IMG/VR virus record: IMGVR_UViG_3300014613_000088 | Coordinates: 1-27,654 of that record | From: a virus | Taxonomy: Duplodnaviria; Caudoviricetes | Length of the DNA stretch: 27,654 bases | Strand: one strand, 5' to 3' | In this document: positions 790 through 25,481 of the stretch, one piece after another | How positions within the stretch are numbered: the first letter of the stretch is position 1 | Layout of the letters: each line of letters opens with the position of its first letter | Program-made: the position numbers and the translations under genes | Notes under the pieces: generated by a model | What the model saw: the letters and a program-made list of their open reading frames with translations, nothing else | Database searches by the model: none | What the model was told of the DNA's origin: nothing

Positions 790-2256
790 TCAACTCGGTG
801 GCTTCCAGCGACTAGACGCCCGTTTGCCGACTCCGCCAATGGCATCGAAGCTCCAGGCAGCCTGCGAACGGGCAATGCAGCAGAGGGCAAACGCCAAGGC
901 TAAATCATCGTGCAAGCCGGGTGGTGCCGAAAGTGTGTTCCCTTCCACCAGTGACAGTTCCGTGATAGTCGCAAAATCATGCAGGACTACCTCGCTATTG
1001 CGCAATTGCTCAGCAGCAGTATTGTACATCATGGTCTTGGAAAGGCTGGTGGTCAGCCAACCAGGCTTACCGTCCATGCCACTCAGGGAGGATAGTTTAG
1101 AGTGTTCGGACAGCCACAGCAGGACGGTACCTCCGTGGTTGTTCCTTTCAACCAAGGTTGGCGCGCTAAAGTACCACTGACCGACCATATCGACATAACT
1201 CGCCAACACCTTAGGTTCAACCCGCTCGCCATACGCCGCGACGTGTTCGCCGGTGTCGGCGTCCATGACTTGGAAGGCGGATGCATCGCTACCGGGGTTC
1301 CCCTCAGCGGGGTCCACACCGATCACGTAGCGATGACCGGGAGTGGGCCTGACATACACACGCAAGCCTGGAATGGCCGGTGCGCCCTGGAGCCCCAGGG
1401 CCGCGTGTTCGGCATTGCATTGCGCCAACCAAGTGGCGGCCATCCGCTTATCAAGCTCCGCAGGGGCTAACGCATCCAAATCGGTTAGCGGATATTGCTC
1501 GTGCAAGTCATCCAGCGCACCGGTGCGCGCCAGAATGTCCTTGCGCTGTTCTTCATACCAGGCGGCATCCCGTTCTGGACGGGCCGTCCAGGGCAAGAAG
1601 ATCGGCTTCCAGGTGTTCTCGTCGCGCTTGGCCGCCCGATAGATGTTTTTGAACTCGCTCTGGGGTTCGCTCTTATTAGAACGCGATAGCAATGTCAGTT
1701 GGCCTCCGCCGTCCACCGTCGGCTTGGCACGCCGCAAGAGGCTATTCAGGTCGGGGCACACATCGGCCTCATCGACCAAGCAGTAAGAGACCGTGAATGA
1801 GTCACCGGCCGTGGCCGGCAAGGCGCGAGCTATGCTACCGTTAGACAGCCCCCAGATGTGATCAGAATTAGAAGTCACCGTCAGACCAGTTTTGAATTCC
1901 GGCGGCAGGCGATCCCACATACCGCGCAAGCGTTCCTGGCCGAGCAGGTACATTGCTTCGCGGTCGCCGCGGCTGAAGATCAAGATCGTAGCGGCTGGTC
2001 GGAAAATCATCAGCCACAGCGCATAGGCCAGGCATAACCAGGTCATGCCAAGCTGGCGCGCTTTGAGAATGATCAGTAGCTTTTCGTCTGGCAGGCTTGT
2101 GGCAACCTGGCGCTGAGCCGGCCAAAGGCGGAACGGGAGCCAGTCGCGTTGGGCGGCGTCGTAGATTTGACAGTGCGCGTCCGCGAAGTACGGGAATGCT
2201 TTCCAACAGGCGGCTAATTGGATGGCGGCTTTTTGCTCAGCTATTGACAGACTCAT
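790..2256 (-). CDS. terL: Terminase large subunit
   Basis: Walker A-like KARQLGMT, Walker B CLVDEAD, RNase H-like nuclease motifs IGVDPAEG, VERN, HDDLALA; 488 aa; upstream of portal. Confidence 0.95.
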   Translation of the reverse strand: MSLSIAEQKAAIQLAACWKAFPYFADAHCQIYDAAQRDWLPFRLWPAQRQVATSLPDEKLLIILKARQLGMTWLCLAYALWLMIFRPAATILIFSRGDREAMYLLGQERLRGMWDRLPPEFKTGLTVTSNSDHIWGLSNGSIARALPATAGDSFTVSYCLVDEADVCPDLNSLLRRAKPTVDGGGQLTLLSRSNKSEPQSEFKNIYRAAKRDENTWKPIFLPWTARPERDAAWYEEQRKDILARTGALDDLHEQYPLTDLDALAPAELDKRMAATWLAQCNAEHAALGLQGAPAIPGLRVYVRPTPGHRYVIGVDPAEGNPGSDASAFQVMDADTGEHVAAYGERVEPKVLASYVDMVGQWYFSAPTLVERNNHGGTVLLWLSEHSKLSSLSGMDGKPGWLTTSLSKTMMYNTAAEQLRNSEVVLHDFATITELSLVEGNTLSAPPGLHDDLALAFALCCIARSQAAWSFDAIGGVGKRASSRWKPPS

Positions 2257-10159: not shown

Positions 10160-10477
10160 TTATCCACTTGATTGCTCCAGGTTGTCAGATTTCTGTTCCT
10201 CGAATGTGAGCCACCAAGCTCCTCGACCTTCATGTTGCCAGACAATGCGAGTTGGGCTGACCTCTACGACGCGATGACGTGTTAGCTCCACGCTGCAAAA
10301 TCGCCCATCACTAGTAATATACCCGCTGATTTGCACATCCATGTCCCTCACTCCACGCACCCGTGGGGTGTACCCTAACGAGTGTATGAATTCCTGGTTC
10401 ATCTGGTTTAGTTGAACCTCGACCATCCCCAGGCATTTTACGTCTCTAGGTGAGTACTCCAGCGACGTGATAATCAT
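10160..10477 (-). CDS. Hypothetical protein
   Basis: 105 aa ORF overlapping the RHH gene 3' end. Confidence 0.6.
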   Translation of the reverse strand: MIITSLEYSPRDVKCLGMVEVQLNQMNQEFIHSLGYTPRVRGVRDMDVQISGYITSDGRFCSVELTRHRVVEVSPTRIVWQHEGRGAWWLTFEEQKSDNLEQSSG

Positions 10478-10613
10478 TGACTTGTTCGGCTTCAGCCAAT
10501 TTACGCACAGCCAATTCTATGATCCCGGCGCGACTCAAACCCAACTTGGCGGCCAAGAGCACCAGCAGACGTTTACATTCAATTGAGAGTGAGTGGGAAG
10601 TGCGTTCTTTCAT
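10446..10613 (-). CDS. Small ribbon-helix-helix DNA-binding protein
   Basis: MKERTSHSLSIECKRLLVLLAAKLGLSRAGIIELAVRKLAE; paralog of 8316-8477. Confidence 0.85.
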   Translation of the reverse strand: MKERTSHSLSIECKRLLVLLAAKLGLSRAGIIELAVRKLAEAEQVNDYHVAGVLT

Positions 10614-10679: not shown

Positions 10680-10850
10680 GGCTAGTCGGCTGTTGGGTGG
10701 AGAGCCAGGTCGCTCGACTGTACTGTGCGGCCCGATAGTGGTTGCAGCTACCGCCTGAAGTCGGGATTGACTGCCTGCTGCTACACGCCCAGCCATACGG
10801 CTCTGAGTGCCGGGTCGCCCTCGCTGTCTCCACCCAACAGCCGACTAGCC
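10680..10850. repeat. Perfect 24-bp inverted repeat enclosing 123 nt of structured sequence
   Basis: GGCTAGTCGGCTGTTGGGTGGAGA (10680-10703) / TCTCCACCCAACAGCCGACTAGCC (10827-10850). Confidence 0.95.
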
Positions 10851-12201: not shown

Positions 12202-12253
12202 GCGACGCCTCTTTCGGTGGGGCCGGTCGGAAGCCGTTTGGCCGATTGATTCG

Positions 12254-12503
12254 ATAGTTACCCATTCCATAGACAACTATGACGTGGGTGTTAACTGAAC
12301 CGGTTGTCCGTTTATAGCTCTCGCAGCCAGTGGCCCGGAACCTGGTTCAGCAGCTACACTACGGGTAGCTGGAAGTCGCTCTTGATACCGTTGCTCCAAA
12401 AGAGACTTCACGGCGCCGAATGGTAGGTGATTCAACTCGTCGTCACCGAAACGTTCGGCGATATTGAGCGCCCCGTTCCAATCAGCGTTACTCTCGAAAT
12501 CGC
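12254..12503 (-). ncRNA. TnpB omega RNA scaffold overlapping tnpB 3' end (guide predicted at 12253-12234)
   Basis: Established position of omega RNA; terminal hairpin ACCCA..CATAG TTGT CTATG..TGGGT; 5' end approximate. Confidence 0.7.
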
Positions 12504-13530
12504 AAGCCAGGCATTTGAACTGGGCTTGCGATGGACGATTCTTGGGATCGACATAGCCACACCGCGAACACTGCTGGCTGGTGTATGCAGGTTGTACAGA
12601 ACGGTAGCGGATGCCGCGTTCATCCAGTTTGAACTTGAGTTTATCACGGGTGTAGCCGAGTTGGGCCGCGGAGAGCCAACGATTCATCATGCGAGACTTG
12701 AAGCGCATGTCCTTGACCGTCAGGCGTTCAAGCGCGACGGCGGACGCGGGGGGCAAGTCATCCAGCATGGTATTCAGGGCACGGCCAATTTCGTTGCGGG
12801 CAAATGCCTGGGCCTTGTGATCGCTCAGGTTAACCGCTGCGAGTCCCTTGCGTTTCAGGCAACGGTTCAACTTTTGCTTGCGGCGGCGCTTGGCAGTGGC
12901 CCGCTCAGTACGCTGGCGCAAGACGGCGCTGACTTCGCCGTAGCTTTGGCCCTCGGAAGTGGCAACGATGCGCTTCATGCCGATGTCCACGCCGATGACC
13001 GTCTTGGTCGCGGGCTTGGCGGTTTTACGTTCTACGACCAGCGTGGCGTACCATTGGGCGCCCCGCTTGGTGAGCGTCACGCCCGTGCAGAGCTTGGGAA
13101 AATCCGCGATGGCTTGGCGCGCTTTGCCGTAGAGCTTTAGTGGAATGCGGACTGGATGCCCAGCGTTGAGCGTTGAGATGCGTAACCAGAAGTCGAAACG
13201 GGGTGTTTCAGACGGCTCCAGGACGATGACGTTGGCGTTGCCTTGGATGCACATGCTATGCAACACGGGCGGCTTGGTACGCTCATTGGCGTACCACGAT
13301 TGCACCGTGCCACACGCCTGTTGCCAGGCGCACCGTTGCCAGCGCACCGAGAGCGGCGTTGTTGCGCCAGGCAGGTCGGCGTACTTGTCAGGCGTCTTGT
13401 CGGCGTTGAAAATCAGCAGGTCGATGTAATTCTGAGTGACGCGCATGTACTCGGCGGCGACGGCATCCAACTGGGTCAACTTACCGGCGTTACCGTCACT
13501 CAGTTTCAGATGCGTAATCGCCTTTTTCAT
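12277..13530 (-). CDS. tnpB: RNA-guided endonuclease TnpB
   Basis: RuvC I VIGVDIG, RuvC II VALERL, Zn finger CSRC..CLAC, RuvC III NADWNGALNI; D-E-D triad intact; 417 aa. Confidence 0.95.
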   Translation of the reverse strand: MKKAITHLKLSDGNAGKLTQLDAVAAEYMRVTQNYIDLLIFNADKTPDKYADLPGATTPLSVRWQRCAWQQACGTVQSWYANERTKPPVLHSMCIQGNANVIVLEPSETPRFDFWLRISTLNAGHPVRIPLKLYGKARQAIADFPKLCTGVTLTKRGAQWYATLVVERKTAKPATKTVIGVDIGMKRIVATSEGQSYGEVSAVLRQRTERATAKRRRKQKLNRCLKRKGLAAVNLSDHKAQAFARNEIGRALNTMLDDLPPASAVALERLTVKDMRFKSRMMNRWLSAAQLGYTRDKLKFKLDERGIRYRSVQPAYTSQQCSRCGYVDPKNRPSQAQFKCLACDFESNADWNGALNIAERFGDDELNHLPFGAVKSLLEQRYQERLPATRSVAAEPGSGPLAARAINGQPVQLTPTS

Positions 13531-13675
13531 CTTGAAGCCTTTTTAGTTCAATAATCGCCAGGCGGTCCATGATCATGACGATGCTTTCGCCAGTGATGGC
13601 ATGAATAAAGCGCAACACCTTGACGGTTTGCGTCCAGATTCTTGTTGATGTGTAGGATGGCGTTTGCTTTCTCAT
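13496..13675 (-). CDS. Small RHH-like DNA-binding protein upstream of tnpB (59 aa, not in ORF track)
   Basis: MRKQTPSYTSTRIWTQTVKVLRFIHAITGESIVMIMDRLAIIELKRL; overlaps tnpB start. Confidence 0.75.
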   Translation of the reverse strand: MRKQTPSYTSTRIWTQTVKVLRFIHAITGESIVMIMDRLAIIELKRLQDEKGDYASETE

Positions 13676-13681
13676 GGTGGC

Positions 13682-13710
13682 AGTTTATCACACAAAGCGT
13701 CGCGTGTCAA
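13682..13710 (-). promoter_or_regulatory. Promoter, leaderless RHH-tnpB transcript
   Basis: TTGACA-17 nt-TAAACT, extended TG, ATG 6 nt downstream. Confidence 0.75.
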
Positions 13711-13727
13711 ATTGCATCTGTCGACTT

Positions 13728-14051
13728 TCATACGCGGCCCATGGCGCTGCGCATGGGCATTTTGTCAATAAACGGGCATGAACTCAATGAAGGAATTCGA
13801 TACCAGGTACGCCGGTAAAACACATAGCTGACACCATTCACCAGCACCGCGGTTTTGTGCACAGCACGGACAGCGTCCACGGCTTCACGCACCGCGGCCG
13901 AGCCGGTCCGTTCCCCGCGGTACACCGGGGCCATTGCTCGCCCGTACTGATCATAGCGAGACGCCAGGACCGGTGCATCTTCCATCGGAATTTCTGAGAC
14001 ACAGATCGATGGTTCACGTTGTGGGGCACGTCTACGTTTAGGCGCGGTCAT
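13728..14051 (-). CDS. Hypothetical protein, C-terminus possibly displaced by the TnpB element
   Basis: AAGGA RBS before MTAPKRRR; overlaps upstream RHH stop. Confidence 0.65.
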   Translation of the reverse strand: MTAPKRRRAPQREPSICVSEIPMEDAPVLASRYDQYGRAMAPVYRGERTGSAAVREAVDAVRAVHKTAVLVNGVSYVFYRRTWYRIPSLSSCPFIDKMPMRSAMGRV

Positions 14052-14226
14052 TGGGCCTGTCCTTCGGCGCGTTACTTGGCGTGCTCTCAGCCAGTAGTTT
14101 GGCGACTGCCAACTCAGCAACCGCTGCCATACTCACGCCCAGGATTGCCGCCAGTAGGCGGACCTTTTGGCGGGTCTCGGTAAATACGCTGATGTGAGTG
14201 CGGGTCTTGAGAATGTATTCGTCCAT
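14038..14226 (-). CDS. Small ribbon-helix-helix DNA-binding protein
   Basis: AGGAGG RBS; RTHISVFTETRQKVRLLAAILGVSMAAVAELAVAKL. Confidence 0.8.
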   Translation of the reverse strand: MDEYILKTRTHISVFTETRQKVRLLAAILGVSMAAVAELAVAKLLAESTPSNAPKDRPNDRA

Positions 14227-17431: not shown

Positions 17432-19273
17432 ATGACTACATTTACTTCTTTGCAATCCGACGGCGTTGATATCCGCACAGTAGCCGAGAACGTCTTTGGC
17501 AACCTGTGGTACGTGGATTCAACGCACGCCAGCAAGTCGGATGCGTCCGGGTTCGGGACCGACCCCGCAACGCCATTTGCGACCTTGGACTACGCCATAG
17601 GCGCGGCCACTGCCAACAACGGCGATGTGATCCTGCTGGCTCCCGGCCACGCCGAAACCAAGTCTGCCACTGGCAGCCTGTTCGCCGCGGACGTCGCCGG
17701 CGTCAAGATCGTCGGTGTTGGTCAGGGCGCGGACCGCGCCACCTTCACCTTCTCGCATACCGGCGCGGCCACCACCATCTCGGCGGCCAGCGTCTGGTTG
17801 GAAAACGTCGTGTTTGTCTGTGGCATTGACAGCGTGACCACTCCGCTAACGATCAGCGCGGCAGACTGCACGCTCGAGGCCGTCGAGTTCCGCGATGCTG
17901 CGAACACTGAGTTCGTGGCTGGTGTCATCACCACCGCGGCCGCCGACCGCCTGACCATCGAAGACTTCAAGTACACTGGTGACACGGTCACCGGCAACGC
18001 CTGCACCATCGGCATCGCCCTGATTGGGGTCAACAACTGCTTGATCAAGAACGCCCGCTTCCACGGCATCTTCTCTACGGCCGCCATCAATCTCAAGACG
18101 ACCAAATCGTTGGGCGTCATCATCGTTGACTCGTCATTCGAGAACGTGGGCACGGCGCTGACCAAGAACGTGGTTGAGTCCATTGCGGACTGCACCTTCC
18201 AGGTCTCCAACTGCTTCGACATGGTGGGGGGCTACGGCTTCTCCGGCAGTGACACGGCGGCTCTGGCTGCCGATGACACGGCCACTATCGCGGCTGCGGT
18301 CGCGGTGGTGGACGGCTACTTCGATGTGCCGACCAAAGACGCGGCTACCGATACCACGATTCGGGATGTGATTGGCCGCAAGACTGACACGGCGGCCACT
18401 AGCGCAGTGAGCGAAGTCGAATCGCTGATGGCCTACGCCAAGCAAAACGTGACCAACACCGAAGCGGCCGCAGTTGCGATTGGCGTCATCGACGGTTACT
18501 TCGATGCGCCGACTAAAGACGCTGTGACCGACACCACCATTCGCGACGCGATTGGTCGTAAGACCGATACGGCTGCGACAGGCGCGGTCACCGAAACCGA
18601 ATCGCTGATGGCCTACGCCAAGCAAAACGTCACGAACACCGAGGCGGCTGCCGCTGCTCTGGTAGTGATCGACGAGTTCCACGATGTGCCGGCCCAAAAT
18701 GCGGTTCTCAATGCCCAGACCAACGAGGTCATCGGTAACAAGACCGATACCGCTGGCTCCGGGGCTGTGACTGACACGTCATCGCTGGTGAAGTACGCCA
18801 AGCAACTCGTCAACGCGGCCATCGCGGGCGCGGCTGTCGATCTGGCAATCGAGCGCTGCGTTGAGAAGACTGACGGCGCCTGTCTCGGCAGTGACGATCC
18901 GCTCTTCACCATCACAGGCGGCCCGATTGTGGTCACCAAGTTTGTCGGCCTGGTCACGACTGTGATCGGCGCAAATGTGGCGACCTGCGCAATCGAGCTT
19001 GACGTGACGGATCCGGCCAACACCATCGCACTCTCCACTGCAGTTGCAATCACCGATGACGCGGCTGGCACCACGTACACCTTCACCGCCGCCACCCCGG
19101 GCGTTCTCACACCCAACACGCTGGGCGGCATCGACCAAATGCCCACCAACGAATGGCTATGCCCAGTTGGCTCAATCATCGCTAACACTAGCGCAGCCAA
19201 CACCGGCGTCATTCACTGGTACATGACGTATAAGCCGCTCTCGCCGAGCTGTGTAGTGGCAGCGGCGGCCTAA
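17432..19273 (+). CDS. Virion fibre/spike-like protein with beta-helix-like N-terminus and three 60-aa repeats
   Basis: WYVDS..GTDPATPFATLDYAI..GDVILLAPGH N-terminus; repeats at 180-nt period; GAGGG RBS. Confidence 0.75.
   Translation: MTTFTSLQSDGVDIRTVAENVFGNLWYVDSTHASKSDASGFGTDPATPFATLDYAIGAATANNGDVILLAPGHAETKSATGSLFAADVAGVKIVGVGQGADRATFTFSHTGAATTISAASVWLENVVFVCGIDSVTTPLTISAADCTLEAVEFRDAANTEFVAGVITTAAADRLTIEDFKYTGDTVTGNACTIGIALIGVNNCLIKNARFHGIFSTAAINLKTTKSLGVIIVDSSFENVGTALTKNVVESIADCTFQVSNCFDMVGGYGFSGSDTAALAADDTATIAAAVAVVDGYFDVPTKDAATDTTIRDVIGRKTDTAATSAVSEVESLMAYAKQNVTNTEAAAVAIGVIDGYFDAPTKDAVTDTTIRDAIGRKTDTAATGAVTETESLMAYAKQNVTNTEAAAAALVVIDEFHDVPAQNAVLNAQTNEVIGNKTDTAGSGAVTDTSSLVKYAKQLVNAAIAGAAVDLAIERCVEKTDGACLGSDDPLFTITGGPIVVTKFVGLVTTVIGANVATCAIELDVTDPANTIALSTAVAITDDAAGTTYTFTAATPGVLTPNTLGGIDQMPTNEWLCPVGSIIANTSAANTGVIHWYMTYKPLSPSCVVAAAA
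18290..18815 (+). repeat. Three tandem ~180-nt intragenic repeats
   Basis: atcgctgatggcctacgccaagcaaaacgt at 18421 and 18601; diverged copy at 18781. Confidence 0.9.
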
Positions 19274-19287
19274 CCTGTAACACTCTC

Positions 19288-19315
19288 CGGGCCAGTCGCG
19301 AGGCTGGCCCGTTTT
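19288..19315 (+). terminator. Hairpin/terminator
   Basis: CGGGCCAGTC-GCGA-GGCTGGCCCG-TTTT. Confidence 0.6.
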
Positions 19316-19330
19316 CCCCTCGGAGGTCAC

Positions 19331-19528
19331 ATGGACATTCTGCTCAGAGATGCGAAATTCTGGATTGCCATCGTACTCCTTCTCAAAGTAGTACTGTTCT
19401 ATGCAATCCCGGCTTTCCCGGAAGAGATTTGGGTCGCCGTCGACGCGCTGCTGGCTGTCGTCATCGGCGCCTTTGCTGGAGTAGCGACTCGCCAGATGGT
19501 CGTGGCGCGCCGCATTAGGAATGGGTGA
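19331..19528 (+). CDS. Holin-like two-TM membrane protein
   Basis: 65 aa, two hydrophobic helices, basic C-terminus, GGAGG RBS. Confidence 0.65.
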   Translation: MDILLRDAKFWIAIVLLLKVVLFYAIPAFPEEIWVAVDALLAVVIGAFAGVATRQMVVARRIRNG

Positions 19529-19532
19529 TACT

Positions 19533-19820
19533 ATGTCACCACGTAGACCACGTAAAGAACCACCGCCCGGACAGAACGAATCCAACGAGGCTCCCGATAA
19601 GTTTCCGTTGCCACAAGTGGCCGAGCCGCCCCGCGTTGTCGCGCCCCCGCCCCCATCCAAGCCGGTTCTCTACAGCGTCGGCGTTCGCAATCGCTGTCCC
19701 TGGGCCACGATCCAGAGCGCCGGGGCCTCCTGGGGCCGCGAGCCAACGATTCTACCGGCCAGCGATGCGCGCCTGCCGGAATTAAAGAGATGCGAGTTTT
19801 TGACCGTCACGGAGATCTAA
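19533..19820 (+). CDS. Proline-rich hypothetical protein
   Basis: In-operon ORF; start 19521 or 19533. Confidence 0.6.
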   Translation: MSPRRPRKEPPPGQNESNEAPDKFPLPQVAEPPRVVAPPPPSKPVLYSVGVRNRCPWATIQSAGASWGREPTILPASDARLPELKRCEFLTVTEI

Positions 19821-19821
19821 C

Positions 19822-20401
19822 ATGGGCGTACTAGACAACATCTTCGGCGCGAACTGGATTGCCGATCTGTTCAATCCGCATCACCAGCCCGCCGGCACAC
19901 CCGTCGGCGGGCAGTTTGCGCCAGCTACGGGCGGGGCGAGCGGTGGTATGGGCGGCCAGACAACCGCGCCAAGTTTGGAAACCAAACGCGCGGCCGCTGC
20001 TAAACGCCTGCACGAATGGCAAAACAATACTGATCGCGGTTTCGAGAGTAACGCTGATTGGAACGGGGCGCTCAATATCGCCGAACGTTTCGGTGATGCC
20101 GAGTTGAATCACCTACCATTCAGCGCCGTGAAACCTCTCCTGGAGCAGCGTTACCAGGCGCGGTTTCCAGCTACCCGTAGTGTAGCTGCTGCACCAGGTT
20201 CCGCGCCAGCAATGGCGGCGACAGCTAACCACGGACAACCGGTGCAGTTAACACCCGGTCATAGTTGTCTATGAACCGGGTAACTATTACCCGCCGATAG
20301 AGTATCGCGGGAAGGGCGATACAGGCCAACCGCCCGAAGGGCCTTCCGGGATCAGCAGCAATCGCCAATCGCCACCCAAAGCACCTACGGTCAACCGTTA
20401 A
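19822..20401 (+). pseudogene. NPHHxPAG..GGQF-motif gene interrupted by a tnpB 3'/omega RNA fragment
   Basis: Native N-terminus to 20034, TnpB C-terminal peptide in frame to 20274, separate open frame 20288-20401 ending before the next RBS. Confidence 0.65.
20035..20287 (+). mobile_element. Stand-alone tnpB 3' end / omega RNA copy (253 nt)
   Basis: 57 nt identical to 12443-12499 (reverse complement), then diverged homology ending at GGGTAACTAT. Confidence 0.9.
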
Positions 20402-20414
20402 AGCGAGGTAACTC

Positions 20415-20774
20415 ATGGCCGGAACTGTAATAACTGTTGAATTACCGCACAGCGTGATTCAAGAAGTCAAATTCGCCTGGACAGCCTCGGCCGGTGGCGC
20501 GGCAGATGCCACTACGCTCGAAGCCTACTCCGGGCGCGTGCTGGAATGCGTGGTTATCCCTGGAGCTACGCCACCCACCGGCTTGTTCGACGTAGCGATC
20601 ACCGATGGTAACAGCGTGGACGTGCTGCATGGCTTGGGCGCGAACTGCTCGAACGCCGCTACGATTGTGTTGATGGCTGGTCTGGGCGCGGTTGCCAACT
20701 CGCCGCTGACGCTGGCCGTCACCGCTGCTGGTAGCGCAAAGACCGGCACGGTGATTTTGCATCTGGGAGTGTAA
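20415..20774 (+). CDS. Putative virion structural protein
   Basis: GAGG RBS; A/G/T/V-rich beta protein in late operon. Confidence 0.7.
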   Translation: MAGTVITVELPHSVIQEVKFAWTASAGGAADATTLEAYSGRVLECVVIPGATPPTGLFDVAITDGNSVDVLHGLGANCSNAATIVLMAGLGAVANSPLTLAVTAAGSAKTGTVILHLGV

Positions 20775-24496: not shown

Positions 24497-25315
24497 TTAC
24501 GAATCAGGCCAGGAGACATGCAACCAAGTTCTGTTAGAGCGTATAGAGAAAATCGTTCCATCCGAAACGTTATAGGCGGAACCAAGCGTGGCACAGGTTT
24601 CACCATCTTGTAGGCGATGTTTGATTTCAAGCACGTCGGCTTCGGTCAAACGGGCATTATGATGCTTAGAACCAAGATTGCGACCTTTTGTTACAGCAGA
24701 AATACGGCGTCTTGTCTCGGCAGTCGCGGTAGCGCCAAGACGCGTGCCAGCATAGGGATCGGTATTATAACCGAATTGCTTATCCGTACATTGGGTCTTG
24801 TCGTACCATGCTTGCTCTCTGGTGGTAAGGTTATCCGTAGGAGCAACTGTTTCAAGGACAGAAAAGGTGAACGCTTCCTGACCATGTTCGTCCCAGTCAG
24901 ATTGGAGCAATACGCTATTATGCTTTCCACGTCTGAGCAACTTGCGATGCTTGCTCCATCGTGGATGGATATTGTTACTCGCACCGATATAGATTTTGCC
25001 GTTCAGACCATTGCGGATTTCATAGACACCGCGTATTTGGGGATTGCGTTTTTCATCGGCCAACTTGCGGCTGAAGCAAAATCGGTTGCAATATTTGCGA
25101 TTCAGGAAGTCCGAGCGTTCTTCACGCTGTCCGCGAACAAGTTTCGCGCCGCAATATTGGCAAGTGAGTTCGACAAGAATCGGGCGTCGATTATGGAGGT
25201 GAGTACACTTATACGAACAGCACTGTCTTTTAGCAAAGACCTTCGCTGTCTCATTCGATCTTTGGATCAATTGCATTCCACACTGGGCGCAATAGCGAGC
25301 ATCAGGACTTGACAC
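24497..25315 (-). CDS. GIY-YIG homing endonuclease with N-terminal Zn fingers, NUMOD3-like motif and C-terminal HTH
   Basis: GVYEIRN..KIYIG, conserved R/E/N; CxxC..C..C repeats; TAETRRRIS; GGGAGG before GTG 25315; visibly AT-richer. Confidence 0.9.
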   Translation of the reverse strand: MSSPDARYCAQCGMQLIQRSNETAKVFAKRQCCSYKCTHLHNRRPILVELTCQYCGAKLVRGQREERSDFLNRKYCNRFCFSRKLADEKRNPQIRGVYEIRNGLNGKIYIGASNNIHPRWSKHRKLLRRGKHNSVLLQSDWDEHGQEAFTFSVLETVAPTDNLTTREQAWYDKTQCTDKQFGYNTDPYAGTRLGATATAETRRRISAVTKGRNLGSKHHNARLTEADVLEIKHRLQDGETCATLGSAYNVSDGTIFSIRSNRTWLHVSWPDS

Positions 25316-25481
25316 GAGGGGGCCTCCCATTTTTGGGACGTTGAAAAGCTTGGACAGCGGCGGGATCGATCATCCAGTCGCGACCATGCTTATGAGCCGG
25401 TAACAAACCGTGCTCGATCCATTTGAGGACCGTCACGCGTTTGACATTGAGAAGTTCAGCAACTTGGGAAGTGGTTAGCAT
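25302..25481 (-). CDS. Excisionase-like HTH_17 DNA-binding protein (59 aa, not in ORF track)
   Basis: MLTTSQVAELLNVKRVTVLKWIEHGLLPAHKHGRDWMID. Confidence 0.85.
   Translation of the reverse strand: MLTTSQVAELLNVKRVTVLKWIEHGLLPAHKHGRDWMIDPAAVQAFQRPKNGRPPRVKS

Follow-up and report, generated by a model that had tools for sequence, protein, structure and literature searches.

A truncated IS607-type right end with a predicted omegaRNA inside a phage gene

How the 3′ end of a tnpB gene came to lie by itself among the late genes of a phage, and whether an RNA made from it could act with a TnpB encoded elsewhere, are the questions raised by the locus described here. The window, meaning the whole stretch of DNA analyzed, is a 27,654-nt virus record that is present in groundwater metagenome runs and has a gene content that includes terminase, Mu-like protease, and capsid genes. 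The copy spans ~20036–20287 (+) and is inverted relative to the tnpB 3′ end of the window at 12254–12503. Over 20040–20287 it shares 88% identity with the 3′ end of the tnpB element that occupies 12254–13799 (−), with 29 substitutions in 245 aligned bases plus four gap columns. As a first-pass annotation of this DNA had stated, both right ends finish in GGGTAACTAT and are followed by differing flanks (and hence differing predicted guides), and no left end precedes the copy: BLAST with full sibling elements places a left end in the window only at 13752–13803. An 853-nt contig from run X4 extends across both junctions and matches the window at every base, so that the copy is no assembly artefact.

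The copy is oriented in the sense of the surrounding late genes, and no plus-strand promoter-like site was seen within 19200–20500. Two other features of the record were observed in passing. A free-standing GIY-YIG endonuclease gene at 24497–25330 (−), also among late genes, is a second candidate homing element, and three tandem repeats of 180 nt occur at 18289–18828 inside a 621-aa ORF with no Pfam family.

The interrupted phage gene

The uninserted allele of the phage gene was found in protein P0122 (188 aa) and in contigs of run X5. A search with the N-terminal 71 residues returned three proteins among 250 candidates, namely the window fusion, P0122, and P0123 (202 aa). P0122 matches the halves of the window gene at residues 1–73 and 151–188, with one change in each, and has 77 more codons between them. 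This middle segment is also present in P0123 and its cluster mate P0124 (202 aa), which are more distant relatives than P0122 and read YHP in place of YYP, implying a mismatch at the first position of the guide described below. Two contigs of run X5, a run from a separate study, show the uninserted sequence. One agrees with the window up to 20039 and continues with 93 nt that differ from it; the other has 156 nt that likewise differ from the window, with GGAG as their last bases, before it joins the window from the TAT at 20285. Both loose ends translate in frame to the middle segment of P0122. The X5 pieces are short contigs at a depth of 2.6–4.3, and they have the same variant at 20354 as P0122, such that the two may represent one source rather than independent ones. 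No Pfam or NCBIfam family was found for the phage gene, and its best Atlas match (0.77) is a lead only.

The remnant thus lacks 232 nt of phage gene and holds 245 nt of element DNA plus a shared TAT in their place, for a net gain of 13 nt. This bears directly on the earlier annotation, which described a precisely inserted element. Its arithmetic, whereby removal of the copy restores a 108-aa ORF, is correct, but the natural allele has 188 aa. The extra junction sequence that it named as evidence against precise insertion is present in P0122, P0123, P0124, and the X5 contigs. The empty junction that it predicted gave zero matches in viral contigs, a weak negative given that no relative of the phage was found there.

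Coordinates of the locus can be assigned from these comparisons. The 5′ part of the phage gene (codons 1–73 of 188, by comparison of P0121 with P0122) occupies 19822–20039 (+) and is now joined in frame to C-terminal codons of TnpB, producing a 150-aa ORF with its stop at 20272–20274. At the left joint, GCGG at 20036–20039 (+) is found both in the intact phage gene and in the matching place of full-length siblings; X5 record 26 tracks the window as far as 20039, and sibling tnpB pieces align from 20038. GCGG occupies the matching tnpB position in L032–L035, and lower-depth siblings have only GG there, so that the overlap amounts to 2–4 nt of microhomology, depending on the donor. The bases 20036–20039 can be attributed to either side, and the element DNA proper is 20040–20287 (+), a 248-nt remnant consisting of the last 78 tnpB codons, a predicted complete omegaRNA scaffold, and the right end. 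The first-pass annotation was therefore right to see a copy of the tnpB 3′ end, but its length of 253 nt does not stand, as uninserted phage sequence runs to 20039.

Within the remnant, the 5′-most conserved helix group of the predicted scaffold lies at 20052–20125 (+) and the terminal hairpin of the right end at 20253–20281 (+). The TAT at 20285–20287 (+) is a core common to the right end of the element and to its target, where it forms codon 151 of the phage gene. X5 record 28 matches the window from 20285 onward, and its loose end before TAT finishes in GGAG. As a consequence, the empty allele reads GAGTAT at the insertion point, which is the motif of the family described in the next section. 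The flank at 20288–20307 (+) is the predicted guide 2, a role assigned from TnpB biology. The 3′ portion of the phage gene also begins there and extends to a stop at 20399–20401. No second GTAT followed by the guide-2 seed occurs in the window. CTGAT, the bases directly 5′ of the copy, was rejected as an insertion motif: it is phage sequence beside the deletion joint.

The parent family and the resident element

The other member in the window is a resident, non-autonomous element of 1546 nt at 12254–13799 (−), composed of a left end, a small ORF replacing tnpA, tnpB, and a right end. Its left end (13752–13799, −) is ~90% identical to that of autonomous siblings and begins at 13799 after GGTAT, with the GTAT target motif, the predicted TAM, at 13800–13803 (−). 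The 417-aa tnpB product (12277–13530, −) is a candidate trans-acting nuclease with RuvC residues D182, E268, and D350, all invariant in 18/18 aligned homologues, and zinc-finger cysteines. It passes NF040570 (122.5 bits, cut-off 100) and does not pass the narrower IS607_TnpB model NF038280 (57.9 bits, cut-off 350). Where siblings have tnpA, a 59-aa ORF overlapping the tnpB start is found (13496–13675, −), for which no family passes its cut-off. A sigma-70-like promoter site (TTGACA, 17 nt, TAAACT, with an extended −10) lies ahead of this ORF and tnpB at 13682–13710 (−). TTGAC occurs twice upstream of tnpB, one occurrence being the −35 box of this promoter-like site. Since both lie inside the resident element, neither is the target motif, contrary to the TTGAC target that had been proposed for this locus. 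The predicted guide 1 is the right flank at 12234–12253 (−), and it matches the resident left junction over 5 nt only. No X5 contig covers an uninserted allele of the resident site.

Other observations were made around the resident element. Its right flank (12249–12253) and its left end (13795–13799, −) start with the same five bases, CGAAT, and the flank of L034 is loosely alike; the recombinase may prefer end-like targets. Small ORFs of a size typical of regulators (14038–14226, 13496–13675, and 10446–10613, all −) each lie behind a TTGACA-type promoter site, two of these sites having been identified by scan and the third by eye. The three ORFs showed only weak family matches, below cut-off.

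Identity of the parent family comes from its autonomous siblings, L033–L035, which are the closest elements (84% DNA identity over the window tnpB) and run in the order left end, tnpA, tnpB, and GGGTAACTAT, with a length of 1908 nt in L034. With NF033518, the model for IS607 transposases, the L034 TnpA scores 193.6 bits (cut-off 110), and it also matches PF00239. A serine-recombinase TnpA thus precedes tnpB in the siblings, while the remnant and resident are without tnpA. Terminal inverted repeats and target duplications are lacking, and a short core is common to the ends and the target: TAT is present at left junctions, at right ends, which finish in ACTAT, and once in the empty allele. By these sequence features, the family of the remnant and resident is IS607-type (serine recombinase plus TnpB). 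Excision and integration of such elements would be expected to pass through a circular, double-stranded intermediate.

GTAT lies immediately 5′ of 18/18 recognizable outer left ends, as compared to 0.23% of 4-mers in the window. The 18 comprise L003, L007, L008, L014, L033, L034, L035, and the window (eight) with three, four, and three others; 12 were found without asking for GTAT, and six were partly selected by TAT or GTAT patterns. In L016–L018, the sequence shared by BLAST begins at GTAT. The count omits L004 (with TAT as the first bases of its contig), L010, L013, and L042 (similar to the left end in its inner part, the outer end being unrecognizable), L011 and L032 (contigs starting inside the element), and L019–L021 (fragments), together with two non-TAT pattern matches far from a tnpB start and one ATAT match in L019.

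Described members of the IS607 group, including IS607, IS1535, ISC1926, and CboIStron (PMC6188088, 10.1101/2023.11.20.567912), likewise have a serine TnpA with an N-terminal HTH before tnpB. Similarly, the IS607 family has no terminal inverted repeats or target duplication and has a right-end omegaRNA with a flank-derived guide. The window family differs in its TAT core and GTAT motif, since IS607 elements have a GG core common to ends and target (PMC6188088), and the TAMs reported for IS607-type TnpBs are G-rich, as in TGGG, AGGAG, or GAGGG, with a GG rule stated in a review (PMC13565253). The GTAT family has neither a GG core nor a G-rich target, and it is filed as IS607-type with a different core rather than as a canonical GG member. 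The remnant itself further differs from IS607 elements in that it has no left end, no tnpA, and no complete tnpB; nor was a group I intron seen. Within the papers searched, none linked a GTAT motif with TnpB, and ISfinder or supplementary tables of TAMs and transposon ends may already list the family.

The first-pass annotation had instead likened the locus to ISDra2, an IS200/IS605 element with the TAM TTGAT. ISDra2 is similar in pairing TnpB with a right-end RNA that overlaps the 3′ end of tnpB, but its transposase belongs to another class and its target motif is a different one. As was noted, the copy has CTGAT directly before it, but the motif at left ends is GTAT, and CTGAT resembles TTGAT by chance. 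IS200/IS605 membership was rejected, as the upstream gene in siblings encodes a serine recombinase rather than a Y1 HUH transposase and the flanks are GTAT rather than TTGAT-like.

Relatives were sought in several collections. A metagenome scan yielded at least 601 stretches that match the pattern, six of which were confirmed among the matches listed. One of the six is the record of the window itself (L031) and one is a chance match (L036), leaving L032–L035, all full-length or contig-truncated elements. In a class-wide genome search, 7/401 genomes matched, five of them through 24–32-nt matches near threshold. Viral-contig scans for the right-end hairpin and for TnpB gave no match, and nine loci found there by a guide-side motif, none similar to the window by BLASTn, were dropped as chance. 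Named best TnpB homologues are mostly from Chloroflexota, and a host in that group is likely. Distant members with 45–46% TnpB identity occur in Desulfamplus records (L016, L017, and L018) and retain the GTAT flank and ACTAT end. In L033, the GTAT element at 82–1989 lies inside another tnpB gene, the C-terminal codons of which come after its right end.

A second, unrelated element end, finishing in GTGGAGTGAGGG, was seen with three different flanks, at 10345–10467 (−) in the window, ~63–165 (−) in L034, and ~2144–2250 (+) in L033. It follows a tnpB C-terminus in L033 and a 55-aa RHH-like gene without tnpB in the window, and no tnpB precedes it in L034. This end is likely another orphan omegaRNA, from a GG-type TnpB family, and its folding is weak (z −0.7 to −1.8). 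No more copies of it were found in viral-contig scans. Just upstream of the RHH-like gene is a perfect 24-nt inverted repeat (10680–10703 and 10827–10850) with its arms 123 nt apart.

Taken together, the family architecture, the GTAT flank, the intact allele and size of the loss, the precise right joint, the overlap at the left joint, and the retained fold make it highly probable that the locus is the 248-nt right end of an IS607-type tnpA–tnpB element that was likely inserted whole at GTAT and then likely reduced by one deletion, leaving a predicted omegaRNA. In the proposed order of events, the TnpA of a sibling element would have inserted that element over the TAT of codon 151, and a later deletion at the microhomology would have taken the left end, tnpA, most of tnpB, and 232 nt of the phage gene. 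A full-length insertion at the GAGTAT site of the phage gene was not among the finds, and the two-step history is therefore inferred.

The predicted omegaRNA and possible action in trans

Fifteen right-end regions produced a consensus scaffold of 56 pairs in nine helices. Across these sequences, 24/56 pairs change on both sides, a count that 0/500 shuffles reached and that exceeds all slid controls, on the understanding that the shuffle control ignores relatedness and that both relatedness and the overlap of the 5′ helices with conserved TnpB codons inflate covariation. Part of the conservation of the 5′ helices may be protein-driven. The remnant retains 55/56 consensus pairs, the same as the resident, and folds with a z of −4.4. 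A covariance model built from 12 other elements, without the resident or remnant, scored the resident at 198 bits and the remnant at 184 bits; decay products of the GTAT family that have other lengths scored 150 (L042), 107 (L046), and 50 bits (L047). Rfam gave zero matches. A pseudoknot could form between the invariant loop GUAGU and the invariant 3′ ACUAU, as judged by inspection with no covariation support. An omegaRNA-type scaffold with its own flank-derived guide, as first annotated, is thus borne out at the level of predicted pairs, in the same genome as a TnpB with three RuvC residues.

Genome G206 holds two copies (L048 1263–1652 and L054) of a gene-less, ~390-nt mini-element of the GTAT family, each with an AGTAT left flank, promoter-like sequence, and a full omegaRNA-like fold. 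These show the same series of helices despite an unrelated 5′ sequence, suggesting that the predicted 5′ helices are a feature of the RNA. The terminal hairpin of L054 carries an additional palindromic insert, and no close TnpB was found in G206. A decayed mini with part of a left end and a right end (L042 ~1435–1700) lies 3.5 kb from a full family element on the contig that also holds L007.

Protein-less elements of this kind have precedents. Stand-alone omegaRNAs were reportedly first described by Altae-Tran in 2021. For those of OMEGA systems, mobilization is described as evident and activity in trans as demonstrated (PMC10691335), and the remnant is like them in combining a complete scaffold, with predicted limits, and a guide in the absence of an effector gene in cis. 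The genome also contains an effector that appears compatible by sequence, an intact tnpB with a scaffold 88% identical. It differs from them in that it is not mobilized as a unit, being a single-copy deletion remnant with a deletion-type left joint, immobile by transposition and of predicted activity. Likewise, PATE-like gene-less minis of IS200/IS605 encode omegaRNAs and rely on the TnpB of another element (PMC10055086), but PATEs have both ends and the remnant only the right one; their both-ended equivalents in the GTAT family are L048 and L054. The locus is best classed as the remnant of a truncated IS607-type element, and it may act in the manner of a stand-alone omegaRNA.

If so, the remnant would be transcribed as part of the plus-strand late genes, and its RNA would be trimmed at the 5′ end and loaded by the resident TnpB. 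Purified AmaTnpB shortens long RNAs from their 5′ side into functional omegaRNA and accepts additional sequence on the 3′ side (PMC10278001), and an IS607 TnpB is able to cleave when its omegaRNA is expressed separately (10.1101/2023.11.20.567912). With D182, E268, and D350 in place, the resident TnpB could take up the RNA of the remnant and cleave the intact alleles of siblings at GAGTAT followed by the guide 2 sequence. The junction of the remnant itself, which reads CTAT rather than GTAT, would be spared, much as TCGG as opposed to TGGG is reported to spare CboIStron. Biochemical competence of the remnant RNA in trans is somewhat more likely than not.

A selected role in nature, in contrast to such competence, is doubtful. 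In the strongest alternative to passive retention, the origin is the same but the remnant is selected as an RNA-only drive allele, with TnpB cutting intact alleles just past GAGTAT and repair from the remnant allele copying the deletion as well (co-conversion). Because the remnant is without a left end, it cannot be excised, and it would not be moved by TnpA; removal of the left end abolished excision of CboIStron (10.1101/2023.11.20.567912). Spread would occur only through cut-and-repair between co-infecting phages, which are named as homing targets in one review (PMC13565253). That review came from a looser search; one aimed directly at TnpB in phage homing during coinfection gave no paper. 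The free-standing phage homing endonucleases SegF and SegB (PMC13565253) act with co-conversion and provide an analogy, in that a nuclease encoded elsewhere would cut the rival allele and carry flanking changes across, with the difference that here an RNA encoded at the converted site would supply the specificity.

Several facts fit selection as a drive allele: the whole scaffold is retained, a real sibling contains both the target and GTAT, the remnant junction would be protected by CTAT, the catalytic residues of TnpB are present, IS607 TnpB can function with omegaRNA supplied separately, and the remnant is in sense orientation among late genes. In particular, the first helix begins at 20052, only 12 nt past the joint, while ~1660 nt of the full element lay upstream of it; this closeness and the net gain of 13 nt are the facts worst explained by an unselected deletion, though they were noticed after the fact. 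Against this, there is a single locus, a conserved 188-aa gene is destroyed, the two alleles do not occur together in any run among the contigs listed (contigs do drop rare variants), and P0123 and P0124 would mismatch the guide at its first position. Moreover, evidence for selection after truncation is weak because most differences from the resident are family variation. For example, the two-armed changes in the terminal hairpin, which had been read as signs that its pairing was retained, are as originally quoted, but one is standing variation (G-C in seven, A-U in seven, and G-U in one of 15 sequences) and the other is unique to the remnant. Selection as a drive allele is accordingly considered unlikely, and a recent, passively kept remnant is the default reading.

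Other origins and implications

An origin in one step, in which a serine recombinase joined the right end alone (or an omegaRNA-sized piece was copied) and an illegitimate left joint replaced 232 nt, is quite unlikely. It would account for a precise right joint beside an illegitimate left one, for the near equality of the replaced and inserted lengths (232 vs. 245 nt), for a boundary near the 5′ edge of the scaffold, and for the lack of a full-length insertion at the site. On the other hand, plain insertion followed by deletion requires no new chemistry, other remnants differ in length, and no second remnant with the same boundary was seen either among the six confirmed metagenome loci (among the matches listed) or among extra matches in 5 + 401 genomes.

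Duplication of the 3′ end of the resident, with later divergence under selection for RNA structure, is less probable again, indeed highly improbable. The resident is the closest sequence to the remnant (29 differences vs. 37–38 for L032/L033), and in a three-way comparison the remnant agrees with the resident at 20 sites against L033. However, it agrees with L033 against the resident at 15 sites, among them a 3-nt length difference, is alone at 15, and all three differ at three. Some of the variants found only in the remnant in this comparison recur in another X5 sibling piece and in P0002. Half of the substitutions in 20040–20205 (8/16) fall at third codon positions, and the right joint is at a proper GTAT target that the resident, lacking tnpA, could not have reached unaided. 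By these sequence comparisons, the donor was most likely a sibling element and not the resident copy. Finally, the first-pass model of a precise, 253-nt, RNA-only element following TGAY is barely credible despite the CTGAT before the copy and the open joined frame, given the 77 more codons in uninserted alleles, GTAT at all 18 recognizable left ends, and a transposase that is a serine recombinase.

Insertion of a sibling element followed by deletion is thus the preferred history, and as a remnant the locus is ordinary. It stands only a modest chance of being a non-excisable, RNA-only gene-drive allele of a phage, in which a TnpB with a GTAT TAM would act in trans to copy the guide and the 232-nt deletion into siblings; were this true, one TnpB would drive two loci of the phage. 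Both alleles are natural, so that guide, TAM, and target for probing a role of stand-alone omegaRNAs in homing or competition between phages are all available from nature. Stand-alone omegaRNAs are already known, and the less familiar by-product is the GTAT target preference. The parent family pairs a serine recombinase with TnpB, inserts strictly at GTAT, and has a TAT core, from which a 417-aa nuclease with a GTAT TAM is predicted.
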